Of a DNA stretch of 64,000 nucleotides, positions 2,081 through 43,152 are shown one piece after another. The translations under genes and the position numbers were made by a program. The notes under the pieces were generated by a model. It had not been told where the DNA came from. It saw nothing but the letters and a program-made list of their open reading frames with translations, and made no database searches. Source of the stretch: a phage; the sequence record PZ347775.1, one strand, 5' to 3'. Each line of letters begins with the position of its first letter. The first letter of the stretch is position 1.

Positions 2081-3040
2081 TCACTTCCACTGCATTTCGC
2101 ATGCTAATTGAATGAAAAGATATGCTAAATGTAATTCCGTATTAGCCGCAATTCCATGATACTGGTTATTTTCACCAACAATTTCATACATACGAATAAT
2201 ACTTTGCGGAGTTACGCGTGTATAGATTTCTTCGGCAAGTTTACCTACGAACCACGAATAATCAGCTGCATATTTTGGTGCTAAAGCTCTGAGTTGTTTA
2301 ACATCTTTATTTTTGAGAGACTCAAGAACATCATCAATAGCACCACGATCGTTAGTAACCAGTGATAAAATACCAGCATCCAAAACACCTTTAGATGAAT
2401 AACTATCGAGCTCACCAATAGTTTTACGAAAATCAGGAAAATTCTTTTTAACCAAAGCTGCTACAACTTTCATATCAGCTATAGCAATTCCTTCATGCTT
2501 ACAGATTTCAGTCAATCGACGAATCATCTGCTTCATCATTTCAATTTTATCTTCATCGGTCGGTTGACCGAACGTAATAACTCGGCAGCGTGACTGAAGC
2601 GGTTTAATAATACCATCAATATTGTTAGCAGTAATAATAATACTACAGTTTGAACTATAAGCTTCCATAAAGGAACGAAGATGTCGCTGAGACTCTGCTA
2701 ATCCTGAACGGTCAAATTCATCAATAACAATTACTTTTTGACGACCATCAAATGAAGCTGCACTAGCAAAATTAGTCAAAGGACCGCGAACGAAATCAAT
2801 TTTACAATCTGACCCATTCACAAACATCATATCAGCATTTACGTCATGACACAATGCTTTCGCTACGGTTGTTTTACCTGTTCCCGGAGAAGGAGAATGA
2901 AGAATAATATGTGGAATCTTACCTTTACTTGTAATAGATTTAAAGGTTTCTTTATCAAAGGCGGGAAGAATACATTCATCGATAGTAGATGGACGATATT
3001 TCTGTTCAAGAATGTGTTCTTTTTCATTTACAGTAATCAT
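2081..3040 (-). CDS. 44: clamp loader ATPase gp44 (ORF track extends to 3055; likely start MITVNEKEH at 3040)
   Basis: Walker [11 protein letters not shown], Walker [12 protein letters not shown] motif (LQSRCRV); matches T4 gp44. Confidence 0.92.
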
Positions 3041-3070
3041 AATTTCCTCATTCAAGTTTAGTGTAAATTA

Positions 3071-3090
3071 TAAAGGGCCGAAGCCCTTTA
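3071..3090 (-). terminator. UUCG-tetraloop hairpin after gene 45
   Basis: taaagggccgaagcccttta immediately 3' of the gene 45 stop. Confidence 0.5.
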
Positions 3091-3777
3091 TTAAAAGTCG
3101 TGGGTAGAATCAGCTTCAAGAGCTACTACATAATTCGCATGTTCACCTTCAAATTTAGCAGCGCCTTGTTTACCTTTTGCCCAGAGAAGAAGTTTATAAT
3201 TTCCTGGTTGCATTTTCATATTTGCCATATTGATAATGAAATTAAATGTATTTTCACCATCATAATCACCAAGAGTCAAAGAATATTTAACACGGGTCAA
3301 AGCAGAATCTTCTACTTTGTTAAAACCGTTAATTACAATTTTACCTTCTTTTACTGTGATAGCAATTGTATCAATCTGCAGACCGCGAGATACACGCAAC
3401 AGCTGTTGAAGGTCTTCAGCTTTAATTTCAGTAACAACAGATGCTACCGGGAATGGAATTGGTTTATTAGGAGCAACTACTGTACTCGGATCGGCTGCTG
3501 GCCAAAAAATTGTTGAACGAGCATCAGCAATTTTAATATTACCATCTTCTGACTGGGAAATTTCTGCATCATCATTAACTAGAGACAGAATACCGAGAAA
3601 ACCGTTCAAATCGTAAATCGCTACATCAAAATCAATAGTGTCAGAAATATTTGCTTCTGCATAAGTTGTACCATTAACCGCGCGAGTCATAATAAATTGA
3701 CCGGATTTAAGCATAATACCAGAGTTAATAGTAGCGAAATTTTTAAGCAGAGCAGTAGTATCTTTAGACAGTTTCAT
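3091..3777 (-). CDS. 45: sliding clamp gp45
   Basis: 228 aa, same length and position as T4 gp45. Confidence 0.92.
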   Translation of the reverse strand: MKLSKDTTALLKNFATINSGIMLKSGQFIMTRAVNGTTYAEANISDTIDFDVAIYDLNGFLGILSLVNDDAEISQSEDGNIKIADARSTIFWPAADPSTVVAPNKPIPFPVASVVTEIKAEDLQQLLRVSRGLQIDTIAITVKEGKIVINGFNKVEDSALTRVKYSLTLGDYDGENTFNFIINMANMKMQPGNYKLLLWAKGKQGAAKFEGEHANYVVALEADSTHDF

Positions 3778-35464: not shown

Positions 35465-35938
35465 TTATTTGAATGATTTGACGTACTGAATAGAGCCTTT
35501 GCTATTCACGAAAGCGATTTTACCATTTTTATTATACATGGTAGCAGTACGCTGATAGCCATAAGTTTGCTTACCAGATTGATAACCAACTAATGCAAAA
35601 TTATCTTCACCCATTTTATTCTGTTTAGCACGAATGCGTTCATGCCCATGCGCCATAAGAACCTTAGCATCACCAGTTGCAATGGATCTACGAGTTTTTT
35701 CATCTTCAACTGTATTAACAAAGTCGTCAAATGAATCAAATTTAGCATGGGATTTATTATACAGTTTTCCATCTACTGCATAATTGTATCCTTGTACATC
35801 CATCTCAACTTCTGTACCATCATCTAATACAGCAGTGATTTTTTGACCTTTTTTAAATTTCAAAAGATCAGTAAAAGATTCAGCAATAATTTGAGAATTA
35901 ATAGCTGCTTCAGTAATAAATTCTTGATATGTTTTCAT
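35465..35938 (-). CDS. internal-protein-like capsid-targeted protein (N-terminal CTS MKTYQEFITEA)
   Basis: 157 aa beginning with the conserved capsid targeting sequence of T4 internal proteins. Confidence 0.65.
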   Translation of the reverse strand: MKTYQEFITEAAINSQIIAESFTDLLKFKKGQKITAVLDDGTEVEMDVQGYNYAVDGKLYNKSHAKFDSFDDFVNTVEDEKTRRSIATGDAKVLMAHGHERIRAKQNKMGEDNFALVGYQSGKQTYGYQRTATMYNKNGKIAFVNSKGSIQYVKSFK

Positions 35939-35954
35939 GTGTATCCTTTAATTT

Positions 35955-36272
35955 TTATTCTTTAGGGAAGTTTTTAGAATATGCATCATAAAGCTTATTT
36001 CCAATACGGCGGAAAACTCTAGCCGCAAAACGATTTTCTGGGTTTTTAATCATGATTTGCATCATATAAGTACCCGCGTCAGAAAGAGCTTCTTCATAGT
36101 ACCCGTTAATTTCTTTAAGAGTCCTACGTTTACCACCAGGACCATCAACAGTGATTTTCCATTTACCTGTAGAAGTGCGACTTGGCGGCTCAACTTGTTC
36201 AATCCAGATATAACCGCCTTCTACACGTTGTCCTTGGGCAGATTCTGCAATAAATTCTTTAAACGTTTTCAT
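35955..36272 (-). CDS. internal-protein-like capsid-targeted protein (CTS MKTFKEFIAES)
   Basis: 105 aa with CTS-like N-terminus, adjacent to e as are T4 ipII/ipIII. Confidence 0.65.
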   Translation of the reverse strand: MKTFKEFIAESAQGQRVEGGYIWIEQVEPPSRTSTGKWKITVDGPGGKRRTLKEINGYYEEALSDAGTYMMQIMIKNPENRFAARVFRRIGNKLYDAYSKNFPKE

Positions 36273-36343: not shown

Positions 36344-36874
<531 letters not shown>

Positions 36875-37330
36875 TTAAAAGAGGCTGTTCATTATTCGGT
36901 AAAGTGAAGGACCCATCACATATTGCCACTGAGTACGAGGAATAAGAGCAAAAGCATCCATCTCTGGAATCATAACACCATCTTTATTTTCAAAATAAGA
37001 CTCGCAATGGCAATTTCTAAACATCTCATGCTCTACTGGAATCGTATAATAAAATAACTGTAAGTCTTTATTACTAGAATATTTAAATACACCTAGGTCT
37101 TCTAGAAGGTCTGGATTATAATTATTAAAACCAGTCTCTTCTAAGCATTCTCTTCGTGCTGCATCTAGTGCGTTTAAATCAGAATTTTCTACGCGGCCCT
37201 TTGGAATATCCCAGCGATGTGCCATCATTCCAGGCTTACGAGAACCAGTAACTCGTCCCATAAATAAATCTTTATCTTCTGTCATAAAGATAATACCAGC
37301 TGATAATGTTTTCATTTTAATTTCCTGCAT
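36875..37330 (-). CDS. nudE: Nudix hydrolase
   Basis: 151 aa with Nudix box GRV...AARRECLEETGF. Confidence 0.8.
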   Translation of the reverse strand: MQEIKMKTLSAGIIFMTEDKDLFMGRVTGSRKPGMMAHRWDIPKGRVENSDLNALDAARRECLEETGFNNYNPDLLEDLGVFKYSSNKDLQLFYYTIPVEHEMFRNCHCESYFENKDGVMIPEMDAFALIPRTQWQYVMGPSLYRIMNSLF

Positions 37331-37800
37331 TCAGTGATAAAGTTATTTAAATTTTGAGTATATTTCTTTTCATCAAAAATCTTTTGCTGCCTACGTAACC
37401 GCCATGGCATTTCAATGAACACGCACCATATTCCTGATAGTACTGCTGCTGTAAAAATATTAACAAGTATGATTAAAAGAATCCAATCTCCCGTTCTGCC
37501 TACTGGACTTTCTCCAAAGAAGCAAAATACAAATGATGTCACAGGAAAACTAATGATATACCACAGAATAACCTTCTTATCTGTGAACCAATCAGCGTTC
37601 GTTAATTTAGCGCGACCATTATGAATACACACGAATTTATCATCTGTTGCAGTAGATGGCTTAACTGGTTGATATCCCATTCTAAACTCCCTAATCAGCA
37701 AATTTTTCATATCTTCGGAACAGCCGCTCCAGTCAACTCTATCGACTGAAATGCCATCGTCCCCATCATCTAAATCATACCAGCGAGTTTTTAAAATCAT
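37312..37800 (-). CDS. membrane protein
   Basis: 162 aa with hydrophobic helices. Confidence 0.5.
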   Translation of the reverse strand: MILKTRWYDLDDGDDGISVDRVDWSGCSEDMKNLLIREFRMGYQPVKPSTATDDKFVCIHNGRAKLTNADWFTDKKVILWYIISFPVTSFVFCFFGESPVGRTGDWILLIILVNIFTAAVLSGIWCVFIEMPWRLRRQQKIFDEKKYTQNLNNFITECRKLK

Positions 37801-38159
37801 TTGATTTTCCTACAATCACTCACAAACTCTTTCATTGATTCATTTTCAATATAAGACATGTAGCTATTATATTCTTTTAATTGTATTTTGTAATCCTTTT
37901 TTCTTTGCCAATTTATTTTAAAATTATCATAATGAAAATATAGCATGGTACCAAAGAATGAAAATAATGAAATAATTTTAGTATAGTGAAGTTCACTCCA
38001 AACTTCTGTTATATTTACTGTGCCGTCGATGTTTAAAATAAGACAGTCAATTAACAATCCAAAAAGACTACCCGCAAGAGCTGCAGCCAACGCCACAGCA
38101 AAAATTAAAAATGACTCAGGAAGCGAATATTTGACTTTATTTAGTTTTGGCTTTTGCAT
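37797..38159 (-). CDS. membrane protein
   Basis: 120 aa, two hydrophobic helices. Confidence 0.5.
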   Translation of the reverse strand: MQKPKLNKVKYSLPESFLIFAVALAAALAGSLFGLLIDCLILNIDGTVNITEVWSELHYTKIISLFSFFGTMLYFHYDNFKINWQRKKDYKIQLKEYNSYMSYIENESMKEFVSDCRKIK

Positions 38160-38554
38160 CGTGATTCCTTAACAAATTTCATAATTTCATCAAATTCATA
38201 CGCAGCAAGTTTAAGCTGATGTTCCTTTTTAATCTTTTTACACTGTGCTTTCCAATCACGTACGCGTTTACGATAATGCCTTCCTTGATACCAGTATCCT
38301 ACCCAATTTACAGGTACTAATAAAAGTGGAACTATTAATGGAAGAATTAGCATTAACACAAGTATTTCGCCAGAATCAATATCAGTCATAACATCTAAAA
38401 CACCTCCAATAATCAATAGAATTACAAATGATATGAGTATAACAGGACCTATTAATACATCAGTAGGAATTAGCTGGCGCTTTAATTCATACTTCAACGG
38501 TTTACTTGGAAGGTATAGTGATGGTTTTGACATATTCTCTACATTCCTTAACAA
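38141..38554 (-). CDS. membrane protein
   Basis: 137 aa, two hydrophobic helices, basic C-terminus. Confidence 0.5.
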   Translation of the reverse strand: MLRNVENMSKPSLYLPSKPLKYELKRQLIPTDVLIGPVILISFVILLIIGGVLDVMTDIDSGEILVLMLILPLIVPLLLVPVNWVGYWYQGRHYRKRVRDWKAQCKKIKKEHQLKLAAYEFDEIMKFVKESRCKSQN

Positions 38555-39110
38555 ATTTTTCTAGTAATAAATCACTTTCAAAATTAGGATTTTCCACTAA
38601 TTTATCAAAAAGATCATCAACAATATTCAAGATATTTCTTTTACTAAGAATACGTTTATTTTCATGTTTCGTTTCAGAATCAACTATAAGAGTAAAGAAA
38701 TATTTCTTTCCCTGAAATTTTACTGTAGTATCAATATAGAATAAATTTGACTTTTGTAAGTTACGTTTAAACCATGCGTCACTTAAACTATAAACACCGA
38801 GATAATCAAAATCGTCGTTTAAATAACATACTGTCCATTCAGGAGAAATGAAATCAGTAAATTCAACATCAAAATCACACGTCAATGAATGAATTGATTC
38901 AATACTGTTAATAAGTATTCCAGGGCGTATTAAAGACTTTTTACCTCTAGAAAATCTTCCAGAAAGACTTTCATCAGTTTCATATGAAGACCCCCAATAG
39001 TAATTACGTCCTTCTGCCATACGTTTAAGAGCATTTAGTAATTGGTCTGGAACATCAACCTGTCTTTGGAACTCTTCAAACATTGAATTGAAATCACTTT
39101 GCATTTTCAT
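38502..39110 (-). CDS. hypothetical protein
   Basis: 202 aa ORF. Confidence 0.5.
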   Translation of the reverse strand: MKMQSDFNSMFEEFQRQVDVPDQLLNALKRMAEGRNYYWGSSYETDESLSGRFSRGKKSLIRPGILINSIESIHSLTCDFDVEFTDFISPEWTVCYLNDDFDYLGVYSLSDAWFKRNLQKSNLFYIDTTVKFQGKKYFFTLIVDSETKHENKRILSKRNILNIVDDLFDKLVENPNFESDLLLEKFVKECREYVKTITIPSK

Positions 39111-39128
39111 TCCTATTTACTCCAAGTA

Positions 39129-39148
39129 ATAGGGGCCGAAGCCCCTTA
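39129..39148 (-). terminator. UUCG-tetraloop hairpin after PspA-like gene
   Basis: aaggggccgaagcccctta. Confidence 0.5.
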
Positions 39149-39151
39149 TCA

Positions 39152-39745
39152 TTATTTCAGAGAATTAATGTATTCCTGAACATCGGCAGAGGTAGTTTCA
39201 ACCCCAGAAATATTACCATTAAAGGTTTCAACTCGAGCAAGGGTATCTTCAATATCAACCTTAGTCAGTGCTGCAATTTCAACTACATCATCAGCAGTAC
39301 TAATTCCAAGGGCATTTGCCGCACGAGTTTCACGGATATATTCCAATTTAACTGCAAGTTCTTGGCGAGCATCATCTAACTCAACTACTTTCTTGGCGAT
39401 TTCAATTCGCATTTCAGCATAACCGTCAGCTTTAGTAGTCAACTGTTCAGCTGTTCGACGATATAGTAAACCGAGTTTAGCATGCATTGTTACATCTTGA
39501 CCTTCGGAAAGAAGTTTTCGAATTTCACGCTCTTTTGATTCAGCCTGTCGATTCTTTTCGATAACAAGTTCACGAATACGTTTTTCTTCATTAATAGATT
39601 TAACAGAAGCAGTTTTTAGATCTTTAATTTTATCAAGCAGTTTTGCTGCTGCAGCAGTATACTGTTCTTCAACAGATAGATTTTTAGCCATAGCAGAACC
39701 AAGTTTAGTGCGAATAAACTCAACAATTTTCTTCAGTGTGTTCAT
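39152..39745 (-). CDS. coiled-coil protein, PspA/IM30-like
   Basis: 197 aa, almost entirely helical with charged heptad repeats; N-terminal pattern loosely resembles PspA. Confidence 0.4.
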
Positions 39746-40904: not shown

Positions 40905-41378
40905 TTATTTGATTTGTTTAGCAGACCAAATGCGGTCTTTAATAATTTTTTGGATGTCTTCAACATACTCAAGAGAGTGAACATGTGGATTATCTTTGAA
41001 ACTATAGGCACGGGCTAACTTTTGGCCTTCGGTTTTGATTACTAAAAGCTCTTTAAGGATAGCTTCATACTTAGCGATAATTCCTTTAACAATATTTTTT
41101 TCTTGTGTAGCTTTAGGATCTGCTTTAGGAGCAGGTTTACCCGAAGCCTTTGCAAAAGCAGCACCAGTAGCAACTAAACTTTTCCAGGCCATACTAACCG
41201 CATTTCCCGTAAATCCTTCGGCTTTCATATCACGAGCAAATTGGAATCGTGATTCATCGGAAGCATCTTTATAGGAATATTTACCCGCGGCAATGGCAGC
41301 TTTTGCAACAGCTTGAATTTCAGTGCTAGATGCTTCATTTAACACCGCTTCATTTAAAAATTGAGCATATGATTTCAT
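40905..41378 (-). CDS. internal-protein-like capsid-targeted protein (CTS-like MKSYAQFLNEA)
   Basis: 157 aa, Ala/Lys-rich, CTS-like N-terminus; flanked by two near-identical hairpins. Confidence 0.55.
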   Translation of the reverse strand: MKSYAQFLNEAVLNEASSTEIQAVAKAAIAAGKYSYKDASDESRFQFARDMKAEGFTGNAVSMAWKSLVATGAAFAKASGKPAPKADPKATQEKNIVKGIIAKYEAILKELLVIKTEGQKLARAYSFKDNPHVHSLEYVEDIQKIIKDRIWSAKQIK

Positions 41379-41429
41379 CTTATTTCCTGTTTTAATTCGT
41401 GGTTTTAATATACTTATTTATACTAAAAA

Positions 41430-42130: not shown

Positions 42131-42206
42131 TGGTCGAGGCAGTAGGGATCGAACCTACGACCTAGGACTTAGAAGGTCCTTGCTCTTCCTTCTGAGCTAT
42201 GCCCCG
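42131..42206 (-). tRNA. tRNA-Arg (anticodon UCU)
   Basis: Hand-folded cloverleaf on minus strand: acceptor CGGGGCA/TGCCTCG, anticodon loop CTTCTAA, T-loop GGTTCGATCC, encoded CCA. Confidence 0.8.
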
Positions 42207-42210
42207 TAAT

Positions 42211-42286
42211 TGGGGTGACCGATGGGAGTCGAACCCATGACTACGAGAATCACAATCTCGAGTTCTACCAACTGAACTACGGCCAC
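42211..42286 (-). tRNA. tRNA-His (anticodon GUG), no encoded G-1
   Basis: Acceptor GTGGCCG/CGGTCAC, anticodon loop TTGTGAT, discriminator C, CCA; resembles E. coli tRNA-His. Confidence 0.7.
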
Positions 42287-42400
42287 ATTAATACCTACTC
42301 CAACAATCAAGATGTCTTCACACGAAATTAAGAGAAGAGTGATCAGTTCAACCCCGATAATCGCGTCAAGTAGATATTAATGTGACAGTTGTCACAAATT

Positions 42401-42475
42401 TGGCGGACGTGATAGGATTCGAACCTATAACCAATCGCTTAACAGGCGATCGCTCTGCCATTGAGCTACACATCC
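42401..42475 (-). tRNA. tRNA-Asn (anticodon GUU)
   Basis: Acceptor GGATGTG/CACGTCC, anticodon loop CTGTTAA, T-loop GGTTCGAATCC, CCA. Confidence 0.75.
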
Positions 42476-42479
42476 AAAT

Positions 42480-42566
42480 TGGTGGGGAGTGATGGAGTCG
42501 AACCACCCGAGTCGCAATGACAATGGATTTACAGTCCACACCGCTACCTCTACGGGATAACTCCCC
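42480..42566 (-). tRNA. tRNA-Tyr (anticodon GUA), class II with long variable arm
   Basis: Acceptor GGGGAGT/ACTCCCC, anticodon loop CTGTAAA, long variable arm TGTCATTGCGACTCG, CCA. Confidence 0.75.
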
Positions 42567-42579
42567 TTAATTCTTAATT

Positions 42580-42654
42580 TGGTGGCCCTGGGTGGAATTG
42601 AACCACCATCTGGCGATTATGAGTCGCTTGCTTGAACCTTCCAGCTACAGGGCC
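42580..42654 (-). tRNA. tRNA with anticodon CAU (Met, or Ile if C34 is modified as reported for T4 tRNA-Ile)
   Basis: Acceptor GGCCCTG/CAGGGCC, anticodon loop CTCATAA, T-loop GGTTCAATTCC, CCA. Confidence 0.7.
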
Positions 42655-42655
42655 T

Positions 42656-42732
42656 TGGTGCTGATTGACGGAATCGAACCGCCGACCTTCTCATTACAAG
42701 TGAGTTGCTCTACCTACTGAGCTAAATCAGCA
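42656..42732 (-). tRNA. tRNA-Thr (anticodon UGU)
   Basis: Acceptor TGCTGAT/ATCAGCA, anticodon loop CTTGTAA, T-loop GGTTCGATTCC, CCA. Confidence 0.8.
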
Positions 42733-42736
42733 AAAC

Positions 42737-42826
42737 TGGCGGAGGCGATAGGATTTGAACCTATGAGTCGCCGGAGCGACTGCCGGTTTTCAAGACCGGT
42801 GCATTAAACCACTCTGCCACGCCTCC
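42737..42826 (-). tRNA. tRNA-Ser (anticodon UGA), class II
   Basis: Acceptor GGAGGCG/CGCCTCC, anticodon stem CCGGT/ACCGG with loop CTTGAAA, long variable arm, CCA. Confidence 0.8.
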
Positions 42827-42828
42827 AG

Positions 42829-42902
42829 TCTCCATACAAGGATTTGAACCTTGGACCTCCTGATCCCAAATCAGGCGCTCTACCAAACTGAGCTACACGG
42901 AG
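42829..42902 (-). tRNA. tRNA-Pro (anticodon UGG), CCA not encoded
   Basis: Acceptor CTCCGTG/TATGGAG, anticodon loop TTTGGGA, T-loop GGTTCAAATCC; 3' end is A-CU not CCA. Confidence 0.75.
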
Positions 42903-42912
42903 TAAATTAAAT

Positions 42913-42986
<74 letters not shown>

Positions 42987-42991
42987 AAATT

Positions 42992-43078
42992 TGGTGCGAG
43001 AAGTGGGACTCGAACCCACAAGGAAATCATTCCGCAGCATTTTAAGTGCTGTGCCTTTACCAATTTGACCATTCTCGC
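42992..43078 (-). tRNA. tRNA-Leu (anticodon UAA), class II
   Basis: Acceptor GCGAGAA/TTCTCGC, anticodon stem CAGCA/TGCTG with loop CTTAAAA, long variable arm, CCA. Confidence 0.8.
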
Positions 43079-43079
43079 G

Positions 43080-43152
43080 CTGGGAATAAAGGACTCGAAC
43101 CTTTGCATCCTGGAATCAAAATCCAGTGCCTTACCAACTTGGCTAATTCCCA
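43080..43152 (-). tRNA. tRNA-Gln (anticodon UUG), CCA not encoded
   Basis: Acceptor TGGGAAT/ATTCCCA, anticodon loop TTTTGAT, T-loop GGTTCGAGTCC; first gene of the cluster. Confidence 0.8.

Follow-up and report, generated by a model that had tools for sequence, protein, structure and literature searches.

A strongly diverged PspA/IM30 homologue in the e.6–e.2 early gene block of a T4-like phage, and a tail motif common to its neighbouring gene products

Identity of the e.6–e.2 gene block

The gene block e.6–e.2 has remained 'hypothetical' ever since the T4 genome was sequenced. The question raised by this locus is what its products do, and whether one of them belongs to the PspA family of membrane-repair proteins. 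It was addressed in a window of 64,000 nucleotides (the whole stretch of DNA analysed, from sequence record PZ347775.1) of a T4-like Tequatrovirus. The region at 37312–39745 is the T4-type early gene cluster e.6-e.5-e.4-e.3-e.2, with all five ORFs on the minus strand and products sharing 84–98.5% identity with the T4 proteins (98.5% for e.6). These ORFs are real, the T4 orthologues of e.2–e.6 having been detected as proteins (PMC9697503 supplement). The features of the block are as follows.

39152..39745, minus strand: e.6, 197 aa, by computation a diverged PspA/IM30 (ESCRT-III superfamily) homologue, phrog_1203
39131..39146, unstranded: hairpin rich in G+C (mRNA-strand sequence GGGGCUUCGGCCCC), located after the e.6 stop and before the e.5 start
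38502..39110, minus strand: e.5, 202 aa, soluble protein with tail motif, no hydrophobic helix
38141..38533, minus strand: e.4, 130 aa from ATG, predicted inner-membrane protein with two transmembrane helices, phrog_2604 aligning from residue 8
37797..38159, minus strand: e.3, 120 aa, predicted membrane protein with one strong and one weaker hydrophobic helix, phrog_2330
37312..37800, minus strand: e.2, 162 aa, predicted membrane protein, phrog_2203 'membrane protein'

The coordinates given for five ORFs (162, 120, 137, 202, and 197 aa) in an initial annotation were confirmed. Their placement downstream of nudE holds in plus-strand coordinates only, as the transcription order is e.6 > e.5 > e.4 > e.3 > e.2 > nudE > e and the block thus precedes nudE. 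The 137-aa ORF at 38141–38554 is present, but the start of e.4 is most likely the ATG at 38533, giving 130 aa; this codon has a Shine-Dalgarno sequence and agrees with the T4 annotation and the PHROG profile, whereas the alternative start, a TTG at 38554, lacks a Shine-Dalgarno sequence. The description of three two-helix membrane proteins stands for e.2 and e.4, which have two clear helices each, while e.3 has one clear helix and a weaker one (residues 62–76).

Within the membrane proteins, e.4 combines two strong hydrophobic helices with an acidic loop and a K/R-rich tail, and e.2 is predicted to have a soluble N-terminal part of ~75 aa, two transmembrane helices and a basic tail. The e.2 gene is intact in the window and frameshifted in the T4 reference. 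Acidic loops and K/R-rich ends fit an N-in/C-in topology, i.e., cytoplasmic tails. The e.5 product has no match in Pfam, PDB or NCBIfam, its family is narrow, and its alpha/beta model is of low confidence (pLDDT 57.6). The possibility that e.5 is a RelA/SpoT small alarmone synthetase was considered and rejected, with Foldseek on this low-confidence model giving a TM of only 0.24 at a probability of 0.66, and with no Pfam or PDB sequence match.

Scans of the five window proteins against Pfam, NCBIfam and PHROG returned no functional name. Sigma-70-like promoter matches in the region are not commoner than in shuffled sequence. There is no U-run 3′ of the hairpin at 39131..39146. Some related GenBank records have a terminator annotated within the matched region or at the e.6 gene.

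Homology of e.6 to the PspA/IM30/Vipp1 family

The initial annotation had described a loose resemblance of the 197-aa protein to PspA/IM30 and called it weak. Membership of e.6 in this family is supported by four kinds of evidence, namely profile-to-sequence searches, profile-to-profile comparison, Pfam matches of distant members and Foldseek. Two alignments were used, A1 with 30 close T4-like e.6 homologues and A2, a diverse family alignment of 38 sequences; e.6 itself matches phrog_1203 at E=1.6e-87. Searched against the PDB, the A2 profile found Vipp1 chains of Synechocystis and Nostoc (E=9e-5 to 4e-3) in matches collinear from residue 1, with profile 1–146 on chain 1–147 in the one at E=9.3e-5, and E. 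coli PspA at E=1, likewise collinear.

For the profile-to-profile comparison, the relatives retrieved with E. coli PspA as seed all had at least 86% identity, which left the template profile for PspA shallow; the Vipp1 1–147 sequence was added. The comparison of A2 with PspA by hhalign gave 91.6–91.9%, with columns 1–197 aligned to 1–214, and still 81–84% when the Pfam-positive members were removed. The distant members P0186 and P0185 exceed the PF04012 gathering score (39.0 and 35.1 bits vs. 33.9), while P0187 and P0188 reach 22 bits. All four (P0185–P0188) match the T4-type e.6 profile over its full length at E=1e-19 to 1e-21, and P0186 matches the window e.6 by BLASTP at 4e-12. A Foldseek search of the e.6 model against 350,542 PDB chains returned Vipp1 for all of the top eight matches, followed by the archaeal ESCRT-III protein CdvB2.

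The signal depends on the addition of distant family members, since A1 gives only weak matches: its profile reaches Vipp1 at only E=1.8–4.4 and hhalign 7–11%, and its comparison with the single PspA sequence yields a short local match only. In addition, the window e.6 alone has no PF04012 match at E≤1, and PF04012 is among the top families of none of its 30 close relatives.

It could be argued that e.6 is merely a coiled coil, its likeness to PspA and Vipp1 arising from helical composition and heptad periodicity and not from descent. Consistent with this, e.6 and its close relatives weakly match assorted coiled-coil Pfam families, and the Foldseek E-values for e.6 are only 2e-3 to 4e-2. However, reversed and shuffled PspA templates keep the composition and yet fall from 92% to at most 1.3% (≤1.3% for the reversed template, ≤0.8% for 20 column shuffles), and independent methods give collinear alignments from residue 1 through to the C-terminal helix. 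Two family members also lie above a curated Pfam threshold, and the eight best Foldseek matches come from one family. We consider the coiled-coil explanation very improbable.

These computations place e.6 in a branch of the PspA/IM30/Vipp1 family, within the ESCRT-III superfamily, that is specific to phages and strongly diverged, and we hold its homology to PspA/IM30 with high confidence. The resemblance first noted is supported, and more strongly than expected (Vipp1 at E=9.3e-5; hhalign at 92% with controls ≤1.3%).

Architecture of e.6

The AlphaFold2 model of e.6 has helices at residues 3–20, 25–80, 86–145, 165–175, and 186–196, bearing out the earlier description of an "almost entirely helical" protein. 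Three parts can be distinguished.

39686..39739, minus strand: residues 3–20, predicted N-terminal amphipathic helix (alpha0 equivalent), from the model at low pLDDT
39311..39673, minus strand: residues 25–145, long helical hairpin (alpha1, alpha2/3), aligning to Vipp1 and PspA
39158..39253, minus strand: residues 165–196, two short C-terminal helices (alpha4/alpha5 equivalents; helices 165–175 and 186–196)

The two hairpin helices (25–80 and 86–145) are modeled with a pLDDT of 82–95, while that of helix 3–20 is about 40 and residues 148–163 are also below 50. The hydrophobic/charged pattern of the first helix parallels those of E. coli PspA and Synechocystis Vipp1; its hydrophobic moment is 0.45, compared to 0.42 for PspA and 0.57 for Vipp1, with 7% of same-residue shuffles equalling e.6. 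Within the hhalign alignment, e.6 TLARVETF is placed on PspA AMARFESF and a further 11-residue stretch of e.6 on PspA DAISEQLAQLK. The protein has a near-invariant ending, Y-x-x-S-L-K, in which Y192, S195, L196, and K197 are each found in at least 90% of A1, with only Y192 staying above 90% in A2.

In the model, alpha4 and alpha5 come after the alpha1/alpha2-3 hairpin, as they do in ESCRT-III proteins, and the computations show that e.6 keeps the whole PspA layout of an amphipathic helix (predicted at low pLDDT), a long alpha1/alpha2-3 hairpin and two short C-terminal helices. E. coli PspA (PF04012) aligns with e.6 collinearly over its full length at profile level and has an N-terminal amphipathic helix of the kind predicted for e.6, but the two share only ~14% identity, and the phage protein has 25 residues fewer and a reduced alpha4 region. 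Cyanobacterial Vipp1/IM30 (sll0617; PDB 7o3w, 8qfv, 6zvr) gives the best matches both by sequence and in Foldseek; these are collinear over residues 1–147, and the order of the helices is the same, but the extra helix at the Vipp1 C-terminus is absent from e.6. The Bacillus subtilis PspA-family protein LiaH shows a weak collinear match from family member P0186 (E=0.005). The relation to PspA/Vipp1 is much closer than that to ESCRT-III/archaeal CdvB. There is no Snf7 Pfam match, and neither a Vps4-type ATPase nor a MIM-type motif turned up among the block proteins and the three scanned ORFs beside e.6.

Relatives of e.6 in other phages

The e.6 family is represented in at least 1107 phage records and in many Ackermannviridae, Vi01 among them, with homologues of the window e.6 itself coming from T4-like phages. 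In a literature search on T4 e.6 and phage-encoded PspA or ESCRT-III, only one report was found (Gendre et al., 2022; PMC9409062). There, Gp_125 of the Salmonella Kuttervirus SeF3a, which falls in the same PHROG as the window e.6 (phrog_1203), was assigned PspA homology by HHpred against pdb70 and was proposed to act against abortive infection through protection of the proton-motive force. As this report already covered the PHROG in a Salmonella phage, the PspA-likeness of phrog_1203 is not new. The report concerned one Ackermannviridae phage, for which it was called a singular feature, made no link to T4 e.6, and included neither the partner genes nor the tail motif described here for the window block. 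The new elements are the connection with T4 e.6, the wide distribution of the family and the tail motif of the partners.

Expression and possible function of the block

All five T4 orthologues of e.2–e.6 have early RNAs and, except for e.3 (late), proteins in the early-to-middle classes, and knocking them down leaves fitness on a laboratory host unaffected. Neither a late promoter nor a MotA box lies inside the block. The HIDEN-SEQ preprint and the CRISPRi-ART main text do not mention e.2–e.6. Early expression together with the lack of a knock-down fitness effect suggests that the role is conditional and not a core one in lysis timing. Our best guess is that the block serves in membrane protection or against abortive infection, and a membrane-protective role of e.6 in particular is a credible but tentative proposal, falling a little short of an even chance.

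In early to mid infection, e.6 would bind the cytoplasmic face of the inner membrane via its predicted amphipathic helix and polymerise there as PspA and Vipp1 do. The polymer could then stabilise or reseal the membrane, sustaining the proton-motive force during phage replication. Such a benefit would be visible only under membrane insult, such as that caused by membrane-targeting abortive-infection effectors, superinfecting phages or premature holin lesions.

The initial annotation had linked the module to lysis inhibition or to the blocking of superinfection, an idea that extends to a control of lysis timing. The block does adjoin the endolysin gene e, and it encodes membrane proteins together with a PspA-like protein. 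As both superinfection and holin lesions are insults to the membrane, the idea also overlaps with the explanation preferred here. On the other hand, the five early RNAs and most of the T4 proteins (e.3 being late) appear well before lysis, the block is served by no late promoter, and knock-down leaves fitness unchanged. The genes known to act in T4 lysis inhibition and exclusion (t, rI, rIII, imm, and sp) map elsewhere. Such a role seems to us improbable.

We judge it similarly improbable that e.6 is a PspA mimic acting on the host and not on the membrane, where it might co-polymerise with host PspA and so poison it, bind PspB/PspC or PspF, or serve as a decoy for host defence machinery built on PspA as its platform. 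The homology does span the whole PspA protomer, including the self-assembly regions, and the genes are expressed early and can be dispensed with on a laboratory host poor in defences. Moreover, a CBASS cyclase has been found conjugated to PspA rods in Bacillus (PMC11153139), and PspA can therefore take part in antiphage signaling. However, the ~14% identity to E. coli PspA (hhalign) is low for co-assembly with the host protein, and the family occurs in phages of many hosts and is best matched by cyanobacterial Vipp1, not by enterobacterial PspA.

A tail motif shared by the neighbours of e.6

The neighbours of e.6 end in a common tail, F-[IV]-x-x-C-R, with the following occurrences in the window.

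38538..38555, minus strand: e.5 tail motif F-V-K-E-C-R, residues 186–191, inside a predicted helix (180–196)
38159..38176, minus strand: e.4 variant tail motif F-V-K-E-S-R(-C)
37809..37826, minus strand: e.3 tail motif F-V-S-D-C-R, residues 112–117
37324..37341, minus strand: e.2 tail motif F-I-T-E-C-R, residues 154–159

In its fuller form the consensus of this C-terminal helix reads hydrophobic-[D/E]-x-F-[I/V]-x-x-C-R. The strict form F[IV]xxCR occurs three times in the window (all frames) and three times in 124 kb of T4, in every case in the tails of e.2, e.3, or e.5. Among 38 IMG/VR loci, the ORF directly after e.6 bears the motif in 34 and at least two motif ORFs are present in 32, compared to 1/602 and 1/703 for control ORF tails. 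As A2 was too divergent for the locus search, these loci were gathered with A1 and are all T4-like, representing related phages and not independent samples. When the tails are removed, the motif carriers fall into 16 clusters, making the tail their most conserved part; e.5 and the proteins at its position in other genera form a single cluster. The common tail motif, which the initial annotation did not mention, ties e.2–e.5 together and, by position, to e.6.

In the window, the codons for the x-x residues of the motif also serve as ribosome-binding site for the gene that follows. A nucleotide-level signal (ribosome-binding site or repeat) was nevertheless rejected as the main cause of the motif, because the codons at its conserved positions vary synonymously across genera, including AGR vs. 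CGN for Arg.

Two readings of the tail have to be weighed. It could act as a docking peptide common to these proteins, by which e.6, or some other partner that they share, is positioned or regulated at the membrane; in the two-helix membrane proteins it would lie on the cytoplasmic side. Alternatively, it may be unrelated to e.6, with e.2–e.5 being fast-diverging tandem duplicates in a plastic region and the adjacency of e.6 an inherited gene order; what preserves the tail might then be something separate, for instance a membrane-proximal helix, another partner or the overlap with the next gene's ribosome-binding site. In line with the latter, e.5 and e.4 share at their ends an identical 16-base string (AAATTTGTTAAGGAAT), within which lies the Shine-Dalgarno sequence for the gene that comes next. 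The 34 of 38 loci are not 34 independent events, since gene order is inherited among these related phages, and e.6 homologues without strict-motif neighbours are found in 230-kb Aeromonas phages (L051, L052), in Ackermannviridae and in Pseudotevenvirus (loose variants only). Against an unrelated tail, the motif residues are kept across genera despite variation in their codons, in the x-x residues and in the spacing from the stop, several examples of the motif have no ribosome-binding site, and the tail is the best conserved part of its carriers. In Aeromonas phage ZHF, e.6 has moved beside nrdD and the next gene still bears the motif; in the Pseudotevenvirus phages EC-F1 and GAP161, e.6 adjoins the anaerobic ribonucleotide reductase gene and only a looser F-I-x-x-C-K is found. 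We regard a tail unrelated to e.6 as possible but doubtful, and docking of e.6 by the tail as an equally tentative suggestion.

Docking of e.6 would be analogous to that of PspA with PspB/PspC, or of LiaH with LiaI. Small inner-membrane proteins are encoded nearby both in pspABC and in the e.6 block (e.2–e.4), but the phage block is without a PspF-type regulator, and e.2–e.4 are unrelated to PspB/PspC and have a shared tail motif of their own. In Bacillus subtilis, LiaH is recruited by LiaI, a small two-transmembrane-helix protein encoded by the adjacent gene. LiaI has no sequence relation to e.2–e.4, and the phage differs in having several alternative small proteins and a soluble one with a common tail. 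Pfam and NCBIfam scans of the partners gave no homology to PspB/PspC or LiaI. Membrane proteins are also encoded after the e.6 homologue in Vi01 and in a related metagenomic contig (L003).

Overall, the explanation we favour, by a modest measure of confidence, is that a diverged PspA/IM30 protein, e.6, protects the membrane together with motif-tailed partners. It is a more speculative and rather unlikely extension that the F-[I/V]-x-x-C-R tails are docking peptides which recruit or trigger the e.6 polymer, so that a changeable set of proteins would form a modular viral membrane repair system countering membrane-attacking host defences, conserved in T4-like phages and simpler in Ackermannviridae.

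Significance

PspA, Vipp1, and ESCRT-III are universal cellular polymers of membrane repair and remodelling. A diverged copy of PspA in T4 and in well over a thousand related phage genomes gives the block a function that can be named and tested, and the shared tail motif offers a simple handle on the role of the small T4 membrane proteins. If e.6 does protect the proton-motive force, it would counteract the numerous defence systems by which bacteria kill through a breach of the membrane and, if true, this would be relevant to phage host range and to the choice of therapeutic phages.

Gene content of the e.2-e.6 block

The block of ORFs at 37312-39745 reported in the initial annotation was confirmed, and comparison with the annotated T4 reference identified it as five minus-strand ORFs, e.2, e.3, e.4, e.5 and e.6. 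Identity to the T4 proteins is lowest for e.2 (84%) and highest for e.6 (98.5%), and the sequence of the block is 96-98% identical to that of many Tequatrovirus genomes (G+C of the window ~35%). Each ORF matched a PHROG of its own (E=1e-60 to 1e-109), the five being annotated as function unknown or merely 'membrane protein'. The principal features are:

36344-36838, minus strand, gene e (T4 lysozyme), adjoining the block
36875-37330, minus strand, nudE, adjoining the block
37312-37800, minus strand, e.2
38502-39110, minus strand, e.5
39152-39745, minus strand, e.6

Because transcription runs e.6 > e.5 > e.4 > e.3 > e.2 > nudE > e, the earlier placement of the block downstream of nudE holds in plus-strand coordinates only; along transcription e.6 comes first and nudE follows e.2. 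The start of e.4 is most likely the ATG at 38533 (130 aa), which has an AAGGA ribosome-binding site, none being present at the TTG at 38554. Three two-helix membrane proteins had been described, and e.2 and e.4 do possess two strong hydrophobic helices each, while in e.3 only one of the two helices is strong and the other is weaker. The acidic inter-helix loops and K/R-rich ends of these proteins fit a predicted N-in/C-in topology, in which the tails would be cytoplasmic.

The family of e.5 is narrow and its structural model poor. The top Foldseek matches of this low-confidence model were the small alarmone synthetases RelP and RelQ (E=1.3e-3, TM 0.24), a likeness which may be meaningless; no sequence support for e.5 as a small alarmone synthetase was found. 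PF26876 is listed in public data for e.5 relatives and is absent from the Pfam copy scanned here.

Elsewhere in the window, a minus-strand tRNA cluster (42131-43152) comprises 11 genes (Arg, His, Asn, Tyr, Met, Thr, Ser, Pro, Gly, Leu, Gln), compared to 8 in the T4 reference, with no segB-like gene called among them. Three minus-strand ORFs (35465-35938, 35955-36272 and 40905-41378), one of them with a late promoter upstream (41415-41422), begin with MK[TS][YF]xxF[IL]xE, a pattern like that of the capsid-targeting N-terminus of T4 internal proteins. All three seem to code for internal proteins distinct from those of T4 ipI, ipII and ipIII.

Relationship of e.6 to the PspA/IM30 family

Scanned alone against Pfam, e.6 of the window gave no PspA match. 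Its homologues belong to T4-like phages (48 clusters in the first search), and HMMER, run exhaustively against 1.84 billion representatives, returned only 45, nearly all full-length at ~200 aa. A profile of 30 close relatives (alignment A1) reached Vipp1 chains at E=1.8-4.4 only, yet collinearly, over residues 4-143 in both proteins. Enlarged by distant members from the exhaustive search (alignment A2, 38 sequences), the profile matched Synechocystis Vipp1 in the PDB at E=9.3e-5 (profile 1-146 to chain 1-147), several further Vipp1 entries at 3e-4 to 4e-3 and, likewise collinearly, E. coli PspA at E=1. The sole A2 match ranking above Vipp1, a designed TIM barrel with a repeated short peptide, was rejected as an artefact of four weak repeats. 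The distant members were also scanned singly against Pfam.

Matches of distant e.6 family members to PF04012 (threshold 33.9 bits)
P0186: 39.0 bits, residues 6-146 to profile 2-143
P0185: 35.1 bits, residues 7-146 to profile 3-143
P0187: 22.3 bits, residues 6-154 to profile 2-151
P0188: 22.1 bits, residues 2-140 to profile 3-142

All four are matched over their full length by the T4-type e.6 profile (E=1e-19 to 1e-21), and P0186 aligns with window e.6 by BLASTP (E=4e-12, 25% identity, 194 residues). When A2 was compared profile to profile with a PspA alignment, the local alignment reached 91.6% and the global one 91.9%, pairing e.6 1-197 with PspA 1-214; a reversed template reached no more than 1.3%, and none of 20 column shuffles exceeded 0.8%. 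Vipp1 1-147 alone gave 88%. The shallow A1 alignment gave 7-11% only, and A2 still gave 81-84% after removal of P0185-P0189 (four of the five with PspA_IM30 Pfam matches), so the signal is real but depends on family diversity.

The AlphaFold2 model of e.6 (A1 input, pLDDT 74.8) contains helices at 3-20, 25-80, 86-145, 165-175 and 186-196, the order of alpha0, alpha1, alpha2/3, alpha4 and alpha5 in PspA and Vipp1. When the model was compared by Foldseek with 350,542 PDB chains, the first eight matches were Vipp1 (E=2e-3 to 4e-2, probability 0.99-1.00), followed by archaeal ESCRT-III CdvB2. The first helix, where model confidence is low, has the hydrophobic/charged pattern of PspA and Vipp1 and a similar hydrophobic moment. 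That e.6 is a mere coiled coil is unlikely in view of the collinear matches, the low control values and the eight leading Foldseek matches from one family. Mainly on sequence profiles, with the fold evidence agreeing, e.6 very probably represents a phage lineage that has diverged within the PspA/IM30 family, and the PspA-like reading proposed initially is supported as remote homology.

One publication had already described this homology for the PHROG that e.6 matches. There phrog_1203, seen in Salmonella Kuttervirus SeF3a, was found by HHpred to be homologous to PspA, and an anti-abortive-infection role was suggested for the SeF3a protein (Gendre et al., 2022, PMC9409062). Literature searches found no paper linking it to T4 e.6, which T4 tables at present still enter as unknown. 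In several GenBank/UniRef records, homologues of e.6 go by the name 'host specificity protein'; no basis for the name was found in this analysis, and it has the look of an annotation error passed from record to record.

The family is broad, with 1107 phage records found by tblastn with window e.6 and 488 with P0188, the latter including Ackermannviridae (Vi01, Klebsiella phages); the contig of P0186 has the gene order of Vi01. In two Ackermannviridae-type loci (metagenomic contig L003, 7391-8124, and L011, 4628-5379) the next gene after the PspA-like one encodes a ~190-aa protein with a single N-terminal transmembrane helix, and a 55-60-aa ORF comes after it. Vi01-like phages therefore resemble T4-like phages in having a membrane protein after the PspA-like gene, although it does not align to e.2-e.5.

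A C-terminal motif shared by the neighbours of e.6

The motif F[IV]xxCR is shared by the tails of e.2, e.3 and e.5, with a variant in e.4.

C-terminal tails of the block proteins
e.2, C-terminus: NNFITECRKLK
e.3, C-terminus: KEFVSDCRKIK
e.5, near C-terminus: EKFVKECREYVK...
e.4 (variant), C-terminus: MKFVKESRCKSQN

Among all 344 long frames of the window the strict form has exactly three occurrences, each in one of these tails; the 124 kb of T4 genome searched also contain three, in the same genes. At the F, I/V, C and R positions the codons differ synonymously, including AGR versus CGN for Arg, so the constraint acts at the protein level. Window copies of the motif overlap, at their x-x codons, the ribosome-binding site of the following gene. 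The 3' ends of e.5 and e.4 share 16 bases, AAATTTGTTAAGGAAT, at 38543-38558 and 38164-38179 respectively on the minus strand; this string codes for K-F-V-K-E of the tail motif and contains the next gene's Shine-Dalgarno sequence, hinting at duplication or recombination between gene junctions.

In Aeromonas, Serratia, Klebsiella and Enterobacter phages, too, proteins whose genes follow e.6 end in the motif; the rest of their sequence gave no BLAST alignment to e.5. In 38 IMG/VR loci of related phages with an e.6 homologue, scored over the last 32 residues, the ORF immediately after e.6 carried the strict motif in 34, and 32 had at least two motif ORFs (up to five in some) within 6 kb downstream, many with two transmembrane helices. 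Control tails with the motif numbered 1 of 602 upstream and 1 of 703 on the opposite strand. With the tail cut off, 111 distinct carriers formed 16 clusters, one being e.5-type (42 members including window e.5), alongside e.2-type, e.3-type and several small-protein groups. A tail motif bearing no relation to e.6 would agree with the 230-kb Aeromonas phages, where no motif neighbour of e.6 was found, and with Pseudotevenvirus (F-I-x-x-C-K only) and Ackermannviridae (loose E-S-I-[VL]-x-R-A-R only); the census and its controls, on the other side, tie the tail tightly to the position after e.6. The motif was not reported in any paper found by literature searches.

Expression, dispensability and proposed role

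Neither a late promoter (TATAAATA) nor a MotA-box middle promoter was found inside the block. A perfect hairpin without a U-run, GGGGCUUCGGCCCC (GGGGC-UUCG-GCCCC, 39131-39146), lies between the e.6 stop codons and e.5, and may make the e.6 transcript more stable or reduce read-through to e.5. The RNAs of all five genes are of the early class in T4, with the e.4 and e.5 proteins detected early, e.2 and e.6 in the middle period and e.3 late (PMC9697503 supplement). CRISPRi-ART knock-down of nudE and e.2-e.8 caused no fitness defect in a laboratory host (PMC11879866 supplement) and the T4 reference e.2 is broken by frameshift; the function of the block therefore seems to be conditional. The earlier idea that the block serves lysis inhibition or exclusion is less likely, given the early RNA class, the lack of a late promoter inside the block and the knock-down result.

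The T4 reference e.2 (NC_000866 67472-67960; L001, the T4 locus, 2973-3461) spans 489 bases, equal to the intact window gene, and differs from it by the loss of one base near 288 and the gain of one near 365. Its annotation accordingly covers a 102-aa fragment and omits the C-terminal frame with the tail motif. This is either a true laboratory-strain lesion or an old sequencing error.

PspB/PspC and LiaI handle their PspA-family protein, and a similar relationship is proposed for e.6 and the tail proteins. That e.6 is instead a host-directed PspA mimic or decoy would draw on the same homology, and is less likely, its matches to cyanobacterial Vipp1 being better than that to E. coli PspA. New here are the connection to T4 e.6, the finding that the family is so widespread, and the partner motif. 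In the role proposed, e.6 would attach to the inner membrane via its first helix and polymerise in the manner of PspA/Vipp1, the tails would be docking peptides for e.6 or another common partner, and e.6 would keep the membrane tight while infection proceeds.
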